Shown: in pieces, positions 2,548-13,398 of the stretch | How positions within the stretch are numbered: the stretch's first letter is position 1 | Layout of the letters: each line of letters starts with the position of its first letter | Assembly: GCA_010015805.1 (NCBI GenBank) | Contig: ML978121.1 | Location: 1,736,001-1,800,000, forward strand | Direction of reading: 5' to 3' | Source of the DNA: Rhizodiscina lignyota | Lineage: Eukaryota | DNA: 64,000 nucleotides | Translations under genes and position numbers: made by a program | Notes under the pieces: model-generated | Told to the model about the DNA's origin: nothing | The model's input: the letters and a program-made list of their open reading frames with translations, nothing else | Database searches by the model: none

Positions 2548-3483
2548 CTACCAGAGGTCGGAATAACACGGATATGCGTCGATAGGTGCAGGGAGTGGAT
2601 GTGTGAGGCTACTTGGAAGCCCAGAGAGTTCTCCCGCACTTGCGTCTCCCCGTATTCCCTCGATGCCCTCATGTGGCTCGAAGGTTCGAAGCACCAAACT
2701 GACCAAGCTTTGTCCACTTGCCCTTGCCTTTTGCGTCTCAGGCAAATTCTTCACCCATTCGAACATCCCATGACTGTTGCTTTCATGTGCCAACCACGTA
2801 TCCTCCATGGATATCCGAACATCCCCTTCTCCATGCTCCACTATGCTCTCGAGAAAGTTACGAAGCGAGCGTGCCACTTCTCTGATCTTGTGAAGCGCTC
2901 TATGAGCCATGCTGAGTAGACGCTGCGCTTCTTGAGCCGCAAGGATATCTCTCTGCAGTTCCCTTCGCTGGTCGGCACTCCAGGGTTCACTTCGCGGCGC
3001 TCTTGGAAGCGGCAGCTTGCGAATGGATTGTCTCGTCAAGGTGTCCACGTTCTCTAATTCCTTCCAAAAGCTTCGTGAGAACGGTTGTTCGCCGAGGAGT
3101 AAATCCAAATCCTCACATCTTGACGGAGCGAAATGTCCCAGCATAAAGCGACGGGTGGGGCTGGTGCGGTAATACACGATGGCTATGTCTCGGATCAAGT
3201 CCTCCAGTTTTTCCCTCCCGACTCTAAATCGATTGACGACCTCGAGGTGAGCTGCCTTTGCCTCTTCAGTGAAGCAGAGACGGCCAACGGAGTAATCTTC
3301 GATTTTCCAGCTGCAGGAGAAGCAATAGAATTCAGTTCGGATGGGTGTTGTTACGTAATTATAGTGACGGCAAATTGGAATGTCTGGATAGAGAGGAGAA
3401 GCGTAGGTCAGAGGGCTGCACGGCTCCACGATGAACTCGTGGACGCAGCCGCAAGAATGCTGATATGAGATCTGCCTGCACAT
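2548..3483 (-). CDS. Hypothetical protein (about 311 aa) with an N-terminal Cys/His cluster (MCRQISYQHSCGCVH...C...C...CFSC) and a predicted helical C-terminal half
   Basis: Long intronless ORF. ATG at 3483 preceded by CAAAC. No family recognised. Confidence 0.65.
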   Translation of the reverse strand: MCRQISYQHSCGCVHEFIVEPCSPLTYASPLYPDIPICRHYNYVTTPIRTEFYCFSCSWKIEDYSVGRLCFTEEAKAAHLEVVNRFRVGREKLEDLIRDIAIVYYRTSPTRRFMLGHFAPSRCEDLDLLLGEQPFSRSFWKELENVDTLTRQSIRKLPLPRAPRSEPWSADQRRELQRDILAAQEAQRLLSMAHRALHKIREVARSLRNFLESIVEHGEGDVRISMEDTWLAHESNSHGMFEWVKNLPETQKARASGQSLVSLVLRTFEPHEGIEGIRGDASAGELSGLPSSLTHPLPAPIDAYPCYSDLW

Positions 3484-3639
3484 GTTTGGTTCGATGCTTT
3501 GATAAGAAGAGTGAAGAGAGATCTCTGCAATAAATAAAGTCAATCCGTGTTGAGAGTGAACGTGAGTTTACCAATTTCGAGTACATTAGCACTTAGTGAA
3601 ATTGGCAGTTAGCCGTTGTTCGAATGGAGGACATTGCAA

Positions 3640-4555: not shown

Positions 4556-5810
4556 ATGCCTGGAATTCCTGTAGAAGTCGTCGGGTCGCTTCCCCGGCCA
4601 ATGTGTTCGTTAAATGCAAATCGTCACTGCTTCGGACATTCACAACGCTGAACTTTGACAGATCTCCAGGAAGCGATTAACCAATATGATTCTGACAAAA
4701 TCACTCTGGAGGACCTCCAGGCGGCTCAAGACAAAGCGGCGCGCGACTCGGTGGAACGAATGGAGGAAACAGGTCATCCGGTGGTAACCGATGGAGAACA
4801 GAGAGCCTCATCGTTTGCTACCTATCCCATTATCGACACTCTGGGCGGCAAAGGTCTTGCCTCGAACCTTGTCGCAGATGGACAGTATTTTGCCATCTTC
4901 GACGATGGTCATCACCGACAATTGCCTCGTCTCGTGAGCGGACCGTTCAAGTACAGGACTTATGCCGCGGATTACCTGAAGAAGAGCAAGCCGTATGCAT
5001 CAAAGCCTGTGAAGCAAGCCGTCATTGCCCCATCAATGCTGTACTTGCTATATCCTCTCAATGGAGAAATAGAAGGGTATCCAAAAAGCCAGTTCGAAAG
5101 TGATCTGATTGACGAGTGTGAGAAGGATATTCGGCAATGTTTCGATGCTGGGGCCGTGCGGGTGTCGATTGACTTTACGGAGGGCAGGCTGGCTAAGAAG
5201 AAAGACAAGAGGAATCCATGGACCGGCGCGGATCTTCTTCAGACATTCGTCGACTTGAACAACAAGGTACTGGATCGATTCTCTCCAGAGGAGAGAAAGA
5301 ACATAGGGATCCACACATGTCCAGGTGGCGATTGTGACAGCGTGCATAGTGGAGACGTCGATTACCATGAGCTGTTGCCGAGCTTGTTCCAAATGAACGC
5401 TGGGTATTTCCTTATCCAATGCGCCAGCGAGAAGGAGAAGGAGAAGGTATACAAGGATATTGGCGCCAATATCCGGAAGGACGCAAATGGTGTCAAGCAG
5501 GTAAATGCTGGATTAATATCAACGCCGTGGACCTGCTGACTCAGTTTGAAAGGTTGCATTCATTGGAGTTGTGAATCCATTGAACCCAGAAGTCGAAACG
5601 CCTGAACAGATCCGTGACGCTGTGCTCGCAGCAGCGAAACATATCCCTACCGACCAGCTTGGGGCCACCGACGACTGTGGCTTCTCGCCATTTTCGATAG
5701 ATGTCAAGCCAAAGCACGGAAGTCCAGACTTTGCAAGAGATGTGGCGTTTCAGAAGATTGCAAGTCGTGTCAAGGGGGTACAGCTGGCGAATGAGGCGCT
5801 AGGACTGTGA
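4556..5810 (+). CDS. Cobalamin-independent methionine synthase II-like protein (single catalytic-domain MetE family, about 381 aa); exons 4556-4604, 4662-5500, 5553-5810
   Basis: N-terminal VVGSLPRP, TDGEQR, zinc-ligand motif GIHTCPGG and TDDCGFSPF. Two GT..AG introns keep the frame. Confidence 0.88.
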
Positions 5811-6099: not shown

Positions 6100-6300
6100 C
6101 ATATGTTGGGGCAAACCGTGGGCGTGGGTAGAACGAGAATAATAACGAGGAGATTATAAGAGGTACGAAATAAGTAAAGAGGTAAAAGAAAGAAGAAATA
6201 CGGACGTAATATATAGAAGGAAGCGACGTATAAGTTAAATTTGTGAACTTATCACAATACGGAATTGGTATTAAACTTATCGATTATCCGGCACCTATCC
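6100..6300. repeat. AT-rich tract with a RIP-like dinucleotide signature (possible repeat or transposon relic)
   Basis: About 6130-6240 is rich in TpA and essentially lacks CpA/TpG, unlike the flanking DNA. Confidence 0.4.
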
Positions 6301-6601
6301 CCCTTTTTATAGGCTCCGCGCTAGGAAGCCTTAGCAGTTGCCCTACAGAAGGGCCCGATGTTTTCCCGGCGCTGTGTGTGCACGGTTTTTTTCCTTTTTT
6401 CCTCTACACAAACCGAGCAGCTCTTTCTTCCTTCAATCCACCGAACAGTAAGTAAATTCTGTATACGCTTGATATATATTAATAAAACTGACAATTGTTG
6501 CGTAGTACACGCCCGACGTATTCTGTGCTGAACACCAGCACACCCACGCTCAGCCTTATTACCGAGAAACCGTGTTAGCGCATGTGCTAAGCATATGCGG
6601 G

Positions 6602-7869
6602 ATGGCGCACAACTACAGCGGCCCCAACGTGACTAACGCGACCAATCCGGTCAATGGGGTTTGGTTCCATGGTTGGTATACGCAAAATACCTGCGAAACT
6701 AAAGCACACTAAACATGTACAGGCCCTATACCAAACCACAACCCCGGCTGGCAGCCGACTGGTAGGTGTTTCTGTGCAAACACTACGCATAGCTGACAGG
6801 ATACACAGTGATCCAGAATTGGGTTGCCAACGGCCGAGCCGGCTGTGAGTTAACCTTTCGTTATAGGATACGCTATACATAGGCTAACGAAATGCAGCCC
6901 GCCCGAACATCGCTGTAGCCGACCACGCCCATCAATACTGTAAGGCTTTTTTTCTGCTAGCGTAGCGCACATCCTGAACCCATGCATAGTCCCGAACCCT
7001 GCTGAGGTGGTCAGTAAGGCCACAGTAGGAGTGTGAGTAAATACGTTCAAATGCATTGTGCTTGTACTGAGTATACATTCCAGGTGCATGATTGACGTTG
7101 GTGATAACGTTATGTGTGGAGTTGTCTTTGAGAACGGTCAAGCAAACGCTGCTGTGAGTATACTGAGCACGTATTGAGCGTATCGTATACTGAGAATTGA
7201 TACAGCTTCGCCGTCACTTTCGCACCGCGCATCCTGGTGCTGGTTAGTATGTCCTCTAAATATGCTTGCGTATGCTGAAAGCGAAAACAGTTCAGAATGC
7301 GACCACACAGAATGTCACCAACCAGGAAATGCTTGAGGCACAAAAGTCAGTACACATCGAGCATGTGCATACACATATCGAGCATATACTGACCGCTTAT
7401 AGTGCGCTCAAGCTGTTCGTGAGGTCCGGAACCTGGCGCGATGCGCTGTTCGGCTCTGAACCGGGGTGAGTATATCCCAATCAGACATTGAGCCAATGCT
7501 AATTGTGTACAAAGACGGGGCCCAGTGGGCGGACTAATCGATGTCTATGCCACTGAGATGGAAGCAATTGCGTAAGTCTGCCTGTGCTGGAAACATGCTA
7601 AGTATACGATATGCTGATCATGAACAGGGCAGCAGATGCGACATTTGCCGCTGCGTACGGCACTCGCTTCCACCGAGATGTAGGTATATGGTAATTGTCT
7701 TTTGATCATGTGCTGATCATGTACACAGCGACTCTGCCAAACCCGTGGCATCGGCAAAAGAAAGGTAAGTTTGCATATTTTCTGTGTGGACACATACTGA
7801 GCATGTGTATAGCGCGGCCCATCCCCGCCCGCAAGAAACCTAAAAATGACCATCACTTTACAGCTATAA
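6602..7869 (+). CDS. Intron-dense orphan gene, 13 exons, 218 aa, with a BED-like C2H2 zinc finger and a basic NLS
   Basis: Exons 6602-6671, 6723-6761, 6809-6844, 6898-6939, 6990-7032, 7084-7153, 7206-7242, 7291-7345, 7403-7465, 7515-7571, 7628-7679, 7729-7764, 7813-7869 total 657 nt, open from ATG to TAA. All 12 introns are GT..AG, 47-57 nt, with CTRA-type branch sites. Protein: MAHNYSGPNVTNATNPVNGVWFHGPIPNHNPGWQPTVIQNWVANGRAGSRPNIAVADHAHQYFPNPAEVVSKATVGVCMIDVGDNVMCGVVFENGQANAALRRHFRTAHPGAVQNATTQNVTNQEMLEAQNALKLFVRSGTWRDALFGSEPGRGPVGGLIDVYATEMEAIAAADATFAAAYGTRFHRDRLCQTRGIGKRKRGPSPPARNLKMTITLQL. Confidence 0.85.
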
Positions 7870-8250
7870 TTAGATGGCTGCTTGACAATGCTGGTGTCTC
7901 TTTTTTGGGGCGCTAGAGTATGCTCATGACCAGCGCCTTGCATTATCAGTAATGTCGAATAGCGACAAGCCTCTACTGGCTCGTGGCCATGCTGAAGACA
8001 AGACTGATCTTATAGCACGATAGCGGGAAATGACTCTCAGGCATACAGCAAGACGAGACAGTCAAGGAATGTCCATACCCAAAAGCGTAAGCGTCTGTAG
8101 TTATCCTCGACGATAAATCACTATCAATTAAAGGCCTTTTGCCATGCACCAGGAGAGTATCTCAATTTGTCCTCTACCTGGCGCTATATCCTGTGACATT
8201 TCCTCCGCATTTGGACGAATTTGATACAATTTCCGCATTGCTCATTGCTC

Positions 8251-10123
8251 TCAAATCATATACCGATAGTCTTTCGCCTGCCTCCTTGCCAATGCAATGT
8301 CAATCCCTTCCATCTCTGCCGTCTTCCTCAGTTTCGCAAGGTCCTCCTCTCTGAGCGGCACGTCCTCATTCTGCAGCGCCGAAAGATACTTGTTTTGGCG
8401 TTGAAGATACCATCGTAAGATAACCGCACAAATCAATGCAACGACTTGTAGCCCGATGCAAGCTCCCAGGGCGGGCCTATAGTCCGGGGGGTCGATGTAA
8501 GTGAACGGTGTCCAGATACTGGCAGCATTTCCGACCGAGTTGACGAAAGCGAGTGCAGCGGCACGCTTGGCAGGTGGACGAGGAATAGCATTCGCAATCC
8601 AAGCGTATATAATGCCGTTTTGTGCAAAGACGAAGATCATAAGGAACATGGAGAAGTATCGGGGGCCGAAAGAGCTTGTTGTCATGAATACAACAAAGCC
8701 GACGATCGTGATCGGGATCGGATAGACGAAGAACCAGAAGCGATGGTTAAGCTTGTCGGATGCCCAGGAATTGACCTAGAGACCTCAGCAATAAGAACCG
8801 AGATGTGTTAACAAGTTACTTACGAATGAGTAAATGACCATGAAGATGTAAGGGGGCGCCACGAGTAAGAGAGAGTCGATGTGATTGAAACCAAGCGTCG
8901 CAGTTAGGGTTGGGAAGAAGTTCTGGAATCCGGATGCGCCAGTAATGCCATGATAAGCAATGGCGAGCAAATATGTCTTAGGGTCTTTAAATGCCAGTTT
9001 ACATCCCGTCCATTGCGACATGCCACCCGGGAGGTCGACGTCGGCTTCCGCTGCGTCGAGGGCCAGACGACGGTTTGCAACGTGCTTCATTTCTGGAGAG
9101 AGACGACTCCAGGTATCAGGGAAGTCTGGAAGAATGAAACAGATGACGATTCCGATAAACATGGTGATGGCTCCTTCGATGACATAGAGCCATTGCCACG
9201 CAGACATCCCTAGGGATCCAGCGAGTCCGCTCAAGATACCAGCAGCAATGCTACACCAATATCAGAAATTGCTCATGGGAAGTGGTGGTGTTCACTCACA
9301 GATTACCGAAGGCACCGCTAAGCAATGAACCCGAGTAGAAAACTGCCATTCTGAATGAAAGTTCGCCTTTCGTGTACCATTTCGAAAGATAGAACAGCAC
9401 GCCTGCGAAGAATGGAGCCTCTTAAAGATTGTTAGTATCGCGAAACGCATTTGCTCAAACAATCTCAACTTACCAACGAGACCCAGAATAAATCGACATG
9501 CTACGATACCTCCATAACTCTTTACCTGGCTCGTCAGGCACGACACCAGGCCCCAGGCTATCACGAAAAAGCCAATGTACCAAGATGGCTTTCCGCAGTA
9601 ATTAAGCAGCAAGTTCGAAGGCACTTGCATCAGAACCTGGCCTCGGTGAGAAGTTGATTAGGATTCGAAAGGATTAGACTTACATAAGCCACGAAAAGGA
9701 TGGACAGACCAACTTGGTACTGAGTATTGTTCAGTCCAAGGTCCTCAACCAGTCCCTGCAATTTCGCCGCTGGCAAAAATATCAGCACCCTGGAATCCAG
9801 AAAATTTCAGTTTCGACGGTTATGGAGCTCATACCAGCATAGTTGTTCCTAGTATCGCACAGTTAGCGAATAGTTCAACACTCGGTTCTCGGGTTCGATA
9901 ATGAGACGTACCGATCAATATAGTTCATCAGATACACCAAGATAACCAGCGGCATAATGAGGCAGTCAATCTTGAAGCGAAGCTTTTTCTCCACCCCGAG
10001 CTCATGCTCTGAAAGCGCCATCATATGCAACGGCTCTCTCGACGGCGAGCCATTCTCGACCTGCGCCATATCAAGCTTCTCCCCACCAAGAATGTCGGAG
10101 TCGTGGACGATTCTGTCTGCCAT
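8251..10123 (-). CDS. MFS transporter, anion:cation symporter (Dal5/Tna1-like) family; multi-exon
   Basis: KIDCLIMP..YLMNYIDRNNYAAAKLQGL (uses a 14-nt micro-exon, 9835-9848), MQVPSNLLL, WQWLYVIEGAIT, PPAKRAAALAFVNSVGN and C-terminal YRYMI. Confidence 0.9.
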
Positions 10124-11681
10124 CGTGAATTGCCTTTGCACAACGACTTGCAGAGGGAAACCGGCAGCGGGTCAGACCCTGGAGAACTGCGACTCTTTAA
10201 AGGGCACCGAAGATCCCGAGTGCCGTTGTCGCGCGCCTTCGCTACAAATCAGACCCATGGTCTTGTGGATCATTCAACTTACAACGCTTGACAAAGCTTC
10301 TTGGGGTTCTGTCCGTGTGGTCTGGGGTTGGATGGTTTGAGGAGTCCCATGTGCGGGGAACAGCCGATTTGCGTTGGATTTGATGCTGACCGGGTGAAAG
10401 AGGCGTGCATGGCCTGCAGCACTGGCACTCGGCAAGCCATTTTGCCATTTTACCAACCAGTGGGAGCTCGTCGCCGAAGCACAGAAGCTCCACGGAAGCT
10501 CCACTTGGCAATTCTTCCCCTTGATGCTTGCCGTTGAGGCATCTTCGGCGCGTTGAGGCTCTCAGCATGGGAATCCGAAATACGCGTCTGACCGGGGAGC
10601 CCTCCCATCCGTCCGCCAACACGGTATCGCGCGACCGATAAATTTGAAAGCATTTGCGCCGCAGTGACAGCTTCGGCGTGCACTGTTGGCAACGGGCGGC
10701 ACGCCGTAGCGGTTGTGCTGTGGTGCTCCACGTGCCATCTCCATGACCTCATGCCGCCGTTGGATCGCTCCACTAAAAGCGGCAAAGGAAGGTGTGGAGA
10801 AGAAGAGCGTGGAGATCTGCCCGTTGGCCTGTGGCGGCCAAGACGGGCTTAATTCCCCGCCAAGACAGCACAGGAGATAGGCCTGGTATCCGAAGCCTGT
10901 CGCTCGCGTCGCCGCTTTTCCGACGTCATCTCGTGATATTCAACTTTCCACCTGCGAGAATTAGACCTGATACGAACGAGTGAAGGTGGTTCGAGCCTCT
11001 CACCCGATCACATTTACCAGCCAGACCTCGCCTATTATGCAAATTTCGCTAATGCTCTTGGCGACGCAGGGTAGCCCAGGGACGGCAGTACTCCATATCC
11101 GACGCCCCGGTTGATAGACAAACAACACATGGAAGAGAAGGCTTGAAACACACAGATGTTCCGTTCTATTGGAATTTTCAGTCTGGGGTATTTGCACAAT
11201 AATTCCAACATTTATCCCCGTCCTGGCTCACTTCTCGAACCTTTACGTCAATTGAATCCCGAAACTGTCCATATAAGGCTCAATAACATCCGCTCATAAC
11301 TACGCATGTCTCGTTGAACAGCTGTTTTCATCGCTCCGCTCAAAATACATCTTTCCTTAAAGCACATCAGCTCATAGCGCAATAGTCGACTCTGAAACAT
11401 GACATGACCCGCTGGCAAACCTAACGTTGGCTTTATTGGCATTGAGAAGTATGGAAACAAACTCATTGCACATGGCTTCTCGTTTGATGTTCGAACATAA
11501 TATGACAGATCTGATTCTATATTCCACTACTGAAGAGCTGAAATGCAGGCTCGTCTATTCGTATACTGTGGGCAAGCTCCATGGACTGTAAGCATTAGAA
11601 CTTATGCTCTCTTTCGAACTTCTCTAGTTCACAGTCTGCCGTAAGACCACCTACTTCGTATTTCCTTCCAACTCTCTTCAC

Positions 11682-12203
11682 CTACTCTCCAATTTGCCTT
11701 TCCTTCAGAATCTCTCCAGTCTCCTCCACCTTCACAGGCTCCGCCGGCAAAATCACAAATATCATCCTGGCATTCTCCGCCGTCCGATTATGCCACGCAT
11801 GCACCGTGCCCCTCTGCACAACTCCATCCTGCTCCTTTAGAACTGTTTCCACTCCATCTTCAAGCTCAATTACCACCTCCCCTTTTATTACGACGCCGAA
11901 ATCGACGCTCAACGTCCGATGAAACGGAGCCGTGGAGTTCGGCGGGAAGTCGATGATGCGCCAGTTGGAGGAAACGGCTTCAGAGATGGGCTGCGATTTG
12001 TTTGCGGGGTCCTCGAAAGGAGCGTTGTTGGACTCAGGAGCCGCGGTTGTGCGGAAGAGGAATGTTGCCCCAAAAGCACCTTCTTGAGCACGCTCAGAAG
12101 GAACGAAGAAGTCGCCGGGATACAGCGTATCGTCGTTCGTTATAATGGCGCGGCCTGAGGAGGAGTGTCCCGTCACAACACGGCGGAATGATGGATATGC
12201 CAT
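11682..12203 (-). CDS. Cupin-2 domain protein (about 173 aa)
   Basis: RRVVTGH..G.A, IIDFPP, FHRTLSVDFGVV..GE and VQRGTVHAWHNR motifs. ATG at 12203. Confidence 0.88.
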   Translation of the reverse strand: MAYPSFRRVVTGHSSSGRAIITNDDTLYPGDFFVPSERAQEGAFGATFLFRTTAAPESNNAPFEDPANKSQPISEAVSSNWRIIDFPPNSTAPFHRTLSVDFGVVIKGEVVIELEDGVETVLKEQDGVVQRGTVHAWHNRTAENARMIFVILPAEPVKVEETGEILKERQIGE

Positions 12204-13398
12204 GGCTTGTGTACGTTGTGGTCCCAGAAGGCAGTACAACAGCCGCTGACAACGTTTGGAAATAGTGGGAGTCACTGTATTTGAGAGTACGGGAGTAGAA
12301 ACAACGCACTGGTATTATATTGATTTCATTATATCTCCGAAACGACCTGTCTAATCAACATTGACTACCGAAATACACGCTCATGCAGAGCTCCCTCATC
12401 GGGGTAAGCGGTCGCCGATATTGTCCGGGTCGGACAGGCTTAGAAGCTCTCGCACGACAGTTAATAATAATAGTTGTTCATCAAATCCCAAGAATACAAG
12501 CTGCTTAAACAAAGGTCTAAGGTCTAAGCTTACTTCGAGGTTAGGTTCCGTGTAAGCCAACCACGGCCACTCGTTCAGAAAAAGAGTTCGTGAAATAGCG
12601 CCATGAACTTGTTCCTTAGGTACGTTCGTCCGGATTACAGATTGAGGCTGAAAAGCCAATTATTAATCTCGCAAGATACCCGCTACTTTCTTCCACTATC
12701 TACAACCCCGTCATATCTAACAAGATATGAACCTAAGCAGCTAAAGAAGTGGTGCAGCCGTAGCGAAAGCTGACTTATCGTAGAAGGCCGCCGATATCAG
12801 CGTTCGGCGGGCAGCTTTCACTATTGTAGGCTATGTTCATCAGCACTTGCCTGAGTCTTAACGCTGGTGAAGATTTTAATGCAGATGGCGAAATGAACTC
12901 AGCGGGATTCAAAGTGTGCTTGACACGGTACTCCCGTATTGTCGTCCGAACGAAAAAGAGGTGAGCAAGCTGAAACCGCACTGCTGGATGCATGTTGCAT
13001 CTACGCAATACTTCTGTGCGTTCCGAATAAATTCCATCTGAAGCATATTAAATTAAGCTTTCAGAGATGCTCTCGCACATGCTGAAGAGCAAAGCTCACT
13101 TACCCTACACCCGTTCGACTTTATCAAGCTGAATTATCTCGTCAACCTCGCGCTGGAGGTTCGGATGGATGTTGGCCATGACAAGGGAATAGTAATTTTC
13201 CGACACATGATTAAAAATTAACATTTGCGAGCGAGGCTAGCTACGTATTCTCGCAATAAAATGGATATCAAATACATATGACGTCCGTGTCTTTGTGCAT
13301 TTTGCAGCATCAGAACAAAGGAAACGCTGCAAGATCCGCCAATCTTGGGCCAAAGTAGCAGAAAATAATCTACATGGAATCGCTTTCGGGTATTAGTC

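Follow-up and report, generated by a model that had tools for sequence, protein, structure and literature searches.

A thirteen-exon gene of Rhizodiscina lignyota encodes a member of an uncharacterised ascomycete family with a predicted C2H2-type zinc finger

Introduction

Positions 6602 to 7869 on the plus strand of a 64-kb stretch of genomic DNA from the ascomycete Rhizodiscina lignyota (this whole stretch is called the window here) look non-coding in the open reading frame (ORF) track, because no plus-strand stop-to-stop ORF across them exceeds 73 amino acids (aa). An initial annotation, made from the letters of the sequence, had resolved the region into a hidden gene of thirteen very short exons encoding a BED-like zinc-finger orphan protein. 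The locus therefore raises the question of whether such a gene is real, to which proteins its product is related, and how it came by its introns. We find that the region is a genuine protein-coding gene and that its product belongs to an uncharacterised family found widely among filamentous ascomycetes. The explanation that best accounts for the evidence as a whole, to which we give a probability of about 70%, is that the product is a C2H2-type member of this family acting as a nuclear regulator, and that the gene has retained an intron-rich ancestral structure.

A thirteen-exon gene model identical to a public protein

Intron candidates were first listed by motif over positions 6300-8200, after which 6602..7869 (+) was spliced by coordinates with a script. 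The thirteen exons, separated by twelve introns, joined into a 657-nt frame of 218 aa that starts with the ATG at 6602 and closes with a TAA stop ending at 7869. The exons measure, in order, 70, 39, 36, 42, 43, 70, 37, 55, 63, 57, 52, 36 and 57 nt, and the introns 51, 47, 53, 50, 51, 52, 48, 57, 49, 56, 49 and 48 nt; intron phases are mixed (0, 1 and 2), and seven of the thirteen exons have a length that is a multiple of three. All twelve introns have GT..AG borders, the donor being GTNNGT in eleven and GTAAGG in the remaining one, and each contains a CTRA branch-like motif some 10-20 nt upstream of a YAG or AAG acceptor. The exon and intron sizes, the splice borders, the mixed phases and the open frame of the initial annotation were thus all reproduced.

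The spliced product is letter-for-letter the public hypothetical protein NA57DRAFT_70473 of R. lignyota, labelled P0001 here, which was found as the single match of the window ORF 7260-7469 (exon 8, in-frame intron 8 and exon 9). Because the two products are identical, the gene model agrees with the public one at every junction; for the same reason the gene, with its 218-aa product already in the public record, is not a hidden one. The features of the gene are as follows, a slash marking the position of a junction within a motif.

Exon 1: 6602..6671, plus strand, 70 nt; ATG; residues 1-23 and the first base of G24
Intron 1: 6672..6722, plus strand, 51 nt; GTTGGT..CTAAA..CAG; phase 1, codon 24
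Exon 2: 6723..6761, plus strand, 39 nt; codes the conserved PIPN.N.GW.P motif
Intron 2: 6762..6808, plus strand, 47 nt; GTAGGT..CTGAC..CAG; phase 1
Exon 3: 6809..6844, plus strand, 36 nt; family-variable region, confidence of the structure model (pLDDT, see below) about 94
Intron 3: 6845..6897, plus strand, 53 nt; GTGAGT..CTAAC..CAG; phase 1
Exon 4: 6898..6939, plus strand, 42 nt
Intron 4: 6940..6989, plus strand, 50 nt; GTAAGG..CTGAA..TAG; phase 1; conserved PN(P) after the junction
Exon 5: 6990..7032, plus strand, 43 nt
Intron 5: 7033..7083, plus strand, 51 nt; GTGAGT..CTGAG..CAG; phase 2, codon 77; G-V-C78 spans the junction
Exon 6: 7084..7153, plus strand, 70 nt; both Cys ligands, C78 and C88
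Intron 6: 7154..7205, plus strand, 52 nt; GTGAGT..CTGAG..CAG; phase 0, between residues 100 and 101
Exon 7: 7206..7242, plus strand, 37 nt; His ligands H104 and H109; conserved LRRH.R..HPGA
Intron 7: 7243..7290, plus strand, 48 nt; GTTAGT..CTGAA..CAG; phase 1, codon 113
Exon 8: 7291..7345, plus strand, 55 nt
Intron 8: 7346..7402, plus strand, 57 nt; GTCAGT..CTGAC..TAG; phase 2, codon 131; N131 invariant in alignment A1
Exon 9: 7403..7465, plus strand, 63 nt; residues 132-151
Intron 9: 7466..7514, plus strand, 49 nt; GTGAGT..CTAAT..AAG; phase 2, codon 152; conserved EPG/RGP
Exon 10: 7515..7571, plus strand, 57 nt
Intron 10: 7572..7627, plus strand, 56 nt; GTAAGT..CTGAT..CAG; phase 2, codon 171
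Exon 11: 7628..7679, plus strand, 52 nt; FHR motif closing the domain; G182, F185 and R187
Intron 11: 7680..7728, plus strand, 49 nt; GTAGGT..CTGAT..CAG; phase 0
Exon 12: 7729..7764, plus strand, 36 nt
Intron 12: 7765..7812, plus strand, 48 nt; GTAAGT..CTGAG..TAG; phase 0, between K200 and R201
Exon 13: 7813..7869, plus strand, 57 nt including the TAA stop
Candidate intron of the 5' untranslated region: 6448..6505, plus strand, 58 nt; GTAAGT..CTGAC..TAG; 97 nt upstream of the ATG, from the motif scan only

Further features of the locus confirmed that the thirteen-exon model is more than the product of chance, as the initial annotation had held for the open frame. The guanine plus cytosine (GC) content is 0.568 in the exons and 0.409 in the introns, with 0.510 in the window as a whole. 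A strict intron motif (GTRNGY..YTRAY..YAG, 44-70 nt) recovers five of the twelve introns, and its density over 628 sliding windows on both strands reaches its maximum at the gene (five per 1268 nt), staying at two or fewer in all but ten of these windows and at three or fewer everywhere outside the gene region. Moreover, residues coded at the junctions or adjacent to them are kept in related proteins (G24, V77/C78, L101, A112, N131, G152, A171, R187 and KRK/RGP). Relatives begin at the same Met as exon 1 and have the ..NP..GY.HG motif in common with it; junction 1 is spanned by the invariant HG/PIPN motif, and junction 12 by a KRK/RGP.PP motif that also occurs in relatives. The intron-like element at 6448..6505 may be an intron of the 5' untranslated region, which would bring the gene to fourteen exons.

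An uncharacterised family in five classes of filamentous ascomycetes

A word-index protein search returned four relatives (E-values from 2e-42 to 6e-39, identity 44-50%). An exhaustive search of 1.84 billion cluster representatives yielded 121 sequences at E ≤ 1e-3, 71 at 1e-10 and 12 at 1e-30, counts that include P0001 itself and two doubtful long repetitive proteins (P0079 and P0111). The E-values of the relatives extend down to 1e-43, and the identity of P0001 to the 39 relatives in a 40-sequence alignment (A2) ranges from 27 to 50%. A further word-index search with alignment A2 added one new protein. The initial description of the product as an orphan is therefore not tenable.

The named members come from five classes. 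The Sordariomycetes contribute Xylariaceae and Xylariales species, Hypoxylon, Gnomoniopsis, Diaporthe, Colletotrichum, Pseudomassariella and Pestalotiopsis; the Leotiomycetes, two paralogues of Phialocephala; the Eurotiomycetes, four species of Penicillium and two of Aspergillus; and the Lecanoromycetes, Stereocaulon and Lepraria. The Dothideomycetes are represented by the Rhizodiscina copy, R. lignyota being one of the fungi of the 101 Dothideomycetes project according to the available part of PMC7082219. The locus tags of the two Phialocephala subalpina proteins (P0006 and P0012) differ by three (PAC_08743 and PAC_08740), pointing to a local duplication. Accessions of named relatives include CZR58851.1, CZR58848.1, KAI1263674.1, KAI0143462.1, KAJ4396799.1, KAL2043276.1, KAK2050609.1, KAJ5476760.1, KUM59083.1, KAJ5574006.1, OJJ82228.1, KAI1370048.1, KAK3166936.1 and KAI1327290.1.

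None of the named family members carries a functional name, two are labelled "C2H2-type domain-containing" in UniProt, and a literature search on six locus tags of family members returned no paper containing any of them. No Pfam family covers the protein, in agreement with its initial placement in an unrecognised family. A quick tree was built from 42 mostly full-length sequences among 126 proteins, together with the ORF of a metagenome locus (L001, described below), fragments being left out; 26 of its 40 inner branches are open, and P0001 sits on a long branch (1.54).

A Cys2-His2 site of C2H2 type with an extended Cys loop

Conservation was counted over alignment A2. Two residues, C78 and G182, are invariant in its 40 sequences, and G24, P25, N30, C88, G89, H104, R106, H109, G111, W142, P151, E168, A171, F185 and R187 are kept in at least 90% of them. 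The motifs of the family follow a fixed order, in which ..NP..GY.HGPIPN.N.GW.P precedes the Cys/His site, followed by AG.NALK..V..GGWR.A.Y..EPGRGP, then by YA...E.IA..D..FA..YGT.FHR and often by a basic tail. P0001 carries all of them in order (HGPIPN.N, C..C..H....H, W-R, EPGRGP and FHR) within about 190 residues.

The finger of P0001 reads C-x9-C-x15-H-x4-H (C78, C88, H104 and H109). The Cys/His motif recognised in the initial annotation is thus present, and it is conserved in relatives: C-x(9-19)-C-x(12-17)-H-x4-H occurs in 38 of the 40 members, always with four residues between the two His, so that the Cys2-His2 ligand set is conserved across the family, with all four ligands intact in P0001. 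The distance between the second Cys and the first His equals the canonical 12 in 35 of the 38, with Phe at +4 and Leu at +10, and the second half of the finger in most members accordingly reads C-x3-F-x5-L-x2-H-x4-H. The x15 spacing is found only in P0001 and stems from a three-residue insertion at 7126-7153, at the end of exon 6 and directly at junction 6; this insertion may be the product of a shifted splice site.

At E ≤ 0.01, Pfam assigned zf-C2H2 to 12, zf-C2H2_4 to two and zf-C2H2_11 to one of the 40 relatives, and zf-BED and DUF7896 to none. A profile of the family searched against PDB sequences gave weak C2H2 matches over CG..F..L.RH.R..H, such as 1mey (E=0.0037). Designed coiled coils topping these profile matches cover one helix only (positions 153-178) and were judged spurious. 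As judged from sequence, the predicted finger is of C2H2 type with an extended Cys loop, and not a BED finger as initially proposed, because zf-C2H2 matches 12 of the 40 relatives and zf-BED none, and because the x12 spacing holds in 35 of 38 members.

Comparison with known fingers leads to the same assignment. Like classical C2H2 fingers (Kruppel/TFIIIA-type, PF00096), the site combines two Cys with two His, the His pair being placed by the structure model on a helix that follows marks of short strands. It differs from them in that the Cys-x2-4-Cys knuckle is replaced by a spacing of 9 in P0001 and of 9-19 in the family, in that a single finger is present instead of an array, in that this finger sits inside a predicted 190-residue domain whose fold is otherwise without a match, and in the Cys-His spacing of 15 in P0001. 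BED fingers (PF02892; CxxC ... H-x3-5-[HC]) likewise have a Cys2-His2 metal site and a ..RH....H ending and are found, as P0001 presumably is, in nuclear proteins, but the family has no CxxC in addition to lacking any zf-BED match. The DUF7896 family ("Key lime pathogenicity protein", PF25438) resembles P0001 in being from Ascomycota, in its similar size and in being the nearest named ESM Atlas cluster when language-model features are compared (0.83), a score that shuffled proteins reached a third of the time; Pfam, however, detected no DUF7896 match.

Beyond the FHR motif, P0001 ends with a GKRKRGPSPP tail. A run of at least three Lys or Arg within 60 aa after FHR is present in 17 of the 40 members, often about ten residues after it, and seven of the 40 carry the full KRKRG..PP motif. 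This conserved basic tail fits the initial proposal of a nuclear protein with a C-terminal nuclear localisation signal.

A confidently predicted domain and its possible function

AlphaFold2, run with the 40-sequence alignment, returned a model of P0001 with a mean predicted local distance difference test (pLDDT) of 90.6 and a predicted template modelling score (pTM) of 0.81, in which residues 1-190 are ordered and the tail scores between 59 and 75 per ten-residue block. The model is rich in loops, with helices at 36-43, 55-59, 97-108, 123-138, 141-144, 159-173 and 175-181; both His are assigned to helix 97-108, and single-residue strand marks lie between residues 68 and 91. This single predicted domain requires all thirteen exons. 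Foldseek found no match for it in the PDB (best E-value 3.2), and VIA-align, which is independent of Foldseek, found none with Z ≥ 2 among 48,161 PDB chains. The model thus points to a domain of about 190 residues that has no solved structural neighbour detectable by either method. An ESM Atlas model of P0001 was disregarded, as its pLDDT was 0.38 and its structure matches all fell below a template modelling (TM) score of 0.35.

A possible mode of action can be outlined from these features. The basic tail would act as a nuclear localisation signal and bring the protein into the nucleus, where R102, R103 and R106 of the finger helix (LRRH.R..H) would contact nucleic acid or chromatin; the larger zinc-stabilised domain would support this helix, and the protein would act as a small regulator. 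We propose this role of a nuclear zinc-finger regulator that binds nucleic acid or chromatin tentatively, at slightly less than even odds.

The zinc site could instead be purely structural, within a protein-binding adaptor or an enzyme-like domain of a new fold that does not bind nucleic acid. Such a role would suit a finger embedded in one compact domain, with no free module, and a fold that neither structure search could match in the PDB, and HGPIPN, W142-R, EPGRGP and FHR are as conserved as the ligands themselves. The finger helix, however, bears conserved Arg residues, the basic tail is conserved as well, and Pfam recognised no catalytic-type motif. A purely structural site is the main rival of the regulator role, and we consider it the less likely of the two.

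Intron density and similarity among the introns

With twelve introns in 657 nt, the gene carries 18.3 introns per kb of coding sequence. According to the available part of PMC8476143, the ancestor of the Pezizomycotina had fewer than 2 introns per kb, the richest fungal genome in that data set has 4.5, and the reconstructed fungal ancestor had 7.6; the same source describes a pervasive bias towards intron loss, with loss exceeding gain in every Pezizomycotina species studied. The density of the gene, about 18 per kb, thus exceeds the Pezizomycotina level roughly ninefold and that of the reconstructed fungal ancestor by a factor of more than two. In neighbouring genes of the window, such as an MFS transporter at 8251-10171 (minus strand) and a cupin at 11682-12314, the exons are of sufficient length to be visible as ORF segments of 86-295 aa.

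Pairwise comparison of the twelve introns gave a mean score of 3.05, against -1.98 +/- 0.54 in shuffles, and a best pair score of 13, against 7.8 +/- 2.0, the shuffling being one that destroys the shared branch site. The introns are not copies of one another; their similarity exceeds that of the shuffles only modestly and is explained by their shared splice signals. The 3' ends of introns 10 and 11 (7609-7626 and 7708-7725) have 18 nt in common at 89% identity, and introns 6, 8 and 12 (7160-7180, 7375-7406 and 7794-7814) have in common a 21-nt segment of the ATACTGAGCA type at 71-81%. These segments could reflect constraint on the branch site or be a trace of intron duplication.

Two known systems offer partial parallels. 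Schistosome micro-exon genes, like the present one, carry the bulk of their coding sequence in very short exons; those exons are symmetric, 6-36 nt long and multiples of three, the products are secreted, and exon skipping generates variation. The exons of the present gene differ in being 36-70 nt long, in having lengths divisible by three in only seven of thirteen cases and in their mixed phases, and together they encode a folded single domain. The introner-like elements of Dothideomycetes resemble the present introns in their Dothideomycete host, in the presence of many introns in one gene and in short common intron segments. According to the available part of PMC3609843, such elements number in the hundreds as near-identical copies, exceed regular introns in length and are predicted to form stable structures, whereas the introns studied here are 47-57 nt long, are not near-identical and have little in common beyond their splice signals.

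Intron sites in relatives

Some relatives have no introns in the corresponding region. Three near-identical loci (L001-L003), the only ones found in a metagenome scan with alignment A1, represent one intronless relative, with an uninterrupted 346-aa ORF over the whole domain. At L001 (2971-4011) this ORF has a 150-residue C-terminal extension that contains an Ala/Thr-rich linker and a CPECGY motif, both absent from P0001; P0036 has part of this extension in common with it. P0005 and P0011, two full-length proteins, stem from the Logan source, where their contigs measure 27 kb and 8 kb, and we infer that Logan proteins such as these are contiguous ORFs.

Other relatives bear marks of introns at the sites seen in R. 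lignyota. P0081, a 93-aa ORF on a 43-kb contig, and the annotated Penicillium protein P0127 (198 aa) fall into one 90% cluster. Their sequences agree at every residue from G24 to A112, after which P0081 reads S-K-Y-L-Y-Q-stop and P0127 continues homologously. S-K-Y is the translation of xGT AAG TAx, that is, of a GTAAGT donor in phase 1, which is both the site and the phase of intron 7. At its start, P0081 has M-Y-V before GPIP where P0127 has Y-A-H, as would be expected if a phase-1 acceptor at the intron 1 site were read through. Since the ORF of P0081 is unbroken from G24 to A112, the Penicillium from which it comes is without introns 2-6.

Public protein models add further cases. At site 7, the Penicillium freii model P0083 ends as P0081 does (SKY..stop) after H(S)GA. 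At site 9, the last residues of the Aspergillus glaucus model P0117 are exactly EPG, in P0114 EPG is followed by Y-V, and P0043 carries an extra 16 aa in frame between EPG and RGP. The models of Penicillium hispanicum (P0048) and Hypoxylon crocopeplum (P0090) stop at site 10, with the homologous ..IA, and P0091 and P0118 read A followed by Y-V or C-V. The Lepraria neglecta model P0086 is without residues 132-151, which correspond exactly to exon 9 and thus to sites 8 and 9, and the Xylariaceae model P0084 is without residues 77 to about 110, which correspond to exons 6-7 and bear on site 5. At site 6, immediately ahead of (L/Y)(R/Y)RH, 18-20 aa are inserted in frame in P0114, P0118 and P0050, and the first and last residues of these inserts fit an unspliced intron. 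Many public models of the family look wrong (P0083, P0117, P0048, P0090, P0086, P0084, P0043, P0050 and P0118), the errors being ends at intron sites, a skipped short exon or in-frame unspliced introns. Within the window itself, one ORF ends in ..SEPG and another in ..MEAIA, in the same manner as the odd models of relatives. An apparent break of P0073 at junction 2 was rejected as an aligner misplacement, because the sequence continues homologously; breaks at sites 2, 3, 4, 11 and 12 were found in no relative examined.

All matches whose homology ends before residue 184 and is followed by a tail of at most 12 aa were counted as premature ends. Nine of the sixteen such C-termini lie within two residues of a junction (null expectation 0.30 per event, binomial P=0.025) and seven within one residue (P=0.014). 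Taken together, the protein sequences suggest that relatives from other classes share sites 1, 6, 7, 8, 9 and 10 with R. lignyota, mostly in the same phase. The site of intron 5 may be shared as well, with weak support from one model, and introns 2-4, 11 and 12 may be either ancestral or later gains.

Differential retention or a burst of gain

Individual members carry different subsets of the shared sites: P0114 has sites 6 and 9 and lacks 7 and 8, and P0081 has sites 1 and 7 and lacks 2-6. As this mosaic is the signature of differential loss, retention is favoured for sites 1 and 6-10. On this basis, the ancestral gene would have been intron-rich, the Rhizodiscina copy would have retained that structure, and relatives would have lost different subsets of the introns, some of them all.

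A lineage-specific burst of intron gain would offer a different history, in which a few sites are ancestral (e.g. 1, 7, 9 and 10) and five or more short introns were newly acquired in the Rhizodiscina lineage (2-5, 11 and 12), for instance by duplication of neighbouring introns. It would account for the unbroken stretch of the Penicillium-like P0081, for the lack of breaks at sites 2, 3, 4, 11 and 12 in all relatives found and for the segments common to introns 10 and 11 and to introns 6, 8 and 12; the contiguous-ORF proteins P0002 and P0005 fall in the clade of P0001 (Shimodaira-Hasegawa-like approximate likelihood ratio test (SH-aLRT) support 94), and the gene exceeds even the intron density of the reconstructed fungal ancestor given in the available part of PMC8476143. 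The twelve introns nevertheless form no repeat family, their common segments coincide with branch-site and acceptor signals, the predominance of loss over gain in Pezizomycotina described in the same source argues against such a burst, and the mosaic of shared sites is what differential loss would leave behind. We therefore regard a gain burst as rather unlikely and retention of an intron-rich ancestral structure as the better account.

Remaining alternatives and points against the preferred reading

It is very unlikely that the gene model is an annotation artefact or that the locus is a decaying pseudogene that is never expressed. The locus is found in a DNA assembly and in no RNA run, the branch of P0001 is long, and the three-residue insertion in the finger is unique to it; the frame is, however, free of stops over twelve junctions and codes conserved residues across them, the four zinc ligands are intact, the spliced product reaches a pLDDT of 90.6, and exons and introns contrast in GC content.

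The least probable alternative, that the product is a BED-finger protein which a hAT-type mobile element gave rise to or carries, could appeal to the DUF7896 cluster of the ESM Atlas, in which 12% of members have zf-BED (a lead only, at a score of 0.83), and to the patchy distribution of the family with its two closely spaced Phialocephala paralogues, but it is opposed by the absence of zf-BED and DUF7896 from the relatives and of the CxxC knuckle, by a product in which Pfam found neither a transposase nor any other domain, by the lack of flanking inverted repeats beyond one pair with 16-nt arms that reaches past the coding region, and by the single copy of the gene in the window (best outside tblastn match E=0.063). 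The initial observation that no transposase domain is visible therefore stands, and the suggestion of a mobile-element-borne or selfish gene receives no support from the repeats or from the copy number in the window.

Several points weigh against the reading preferred here, that of a C2H2-type nuclear regulator whose gene has retained its introns. With respect to the finger, the Cys-Cys spacing of 9-19 breaks the classical x2-4, Pfam gave no match on P0001 even at E ≤ 10, and among relatives the C2H2 matches are likewise weak, the best reaching 3.1e-4. Zinc binding, DNA binding and a location in the nucleus are putative properties of the protein. With respect to the introns, their sharing was read from the protein letters of truncated or odd public models and not from DNA; seven of the sixteen premature ends lie far from any junction, the enrichment is modest in significance, and two of its events (P0081 and P0083) come from related Penicillium. 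The contiguity of Logan proteins such as P0005 and P0011 draws its support from the P0081/P0127 pair alone. The quick tree is mostly unresolved, and the polarity proposed here for gains and losses is accordingly provisional. Finally, positions 6400-8000 occur in no RNA run and only in a DNA assembly contig, which spans the stretch without joints and may be the source of the window, and in the available main text of PMC7082219 no passage deals with introns, with RNA-seq or with the transcriptome of R. lignyota itself.

Other features of the window

Two further ORF regions of the window were noted.

2548-3567, minus strand: uninterrupted ORF of 339 aa with a Cys-rich end; no Pfam match at E ≤ 0.001
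4652-5810, plus strand: ORFs described as MetE-like in the initial annotation; no Pfam match at E ≤ 0.001

Significance

The gene is ordinary in being annotated and conserved, and its intron density lies far outside the usual range of filamentous ascomycetes. Its product combines a C2H2-type site with a surrounding domain that is confidently predicted, occurs in five fungal classes, and has neither a structural neighbour in the PDB nor a known function. A more far-reaching interpretation, probably too strong as it stands, is that the family preserves a mosaic of an ancient micro-exon architecture, of which Rhizodiscina would hold the fullest surviving copy, sister copies having been stripped of all introns, and that the domain would be a new nucleic-acid-binding fold. 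If this were true, the family would provide a natural series for the study of wholesale intron loss or local gain, and would be a source of systematic mis-annotation. It already illustrates how short exons defeat gene prediction in fungi, and its homologues, which range from intronless to multi-intron, offer a small system in which intron loss can be weighed against gain.

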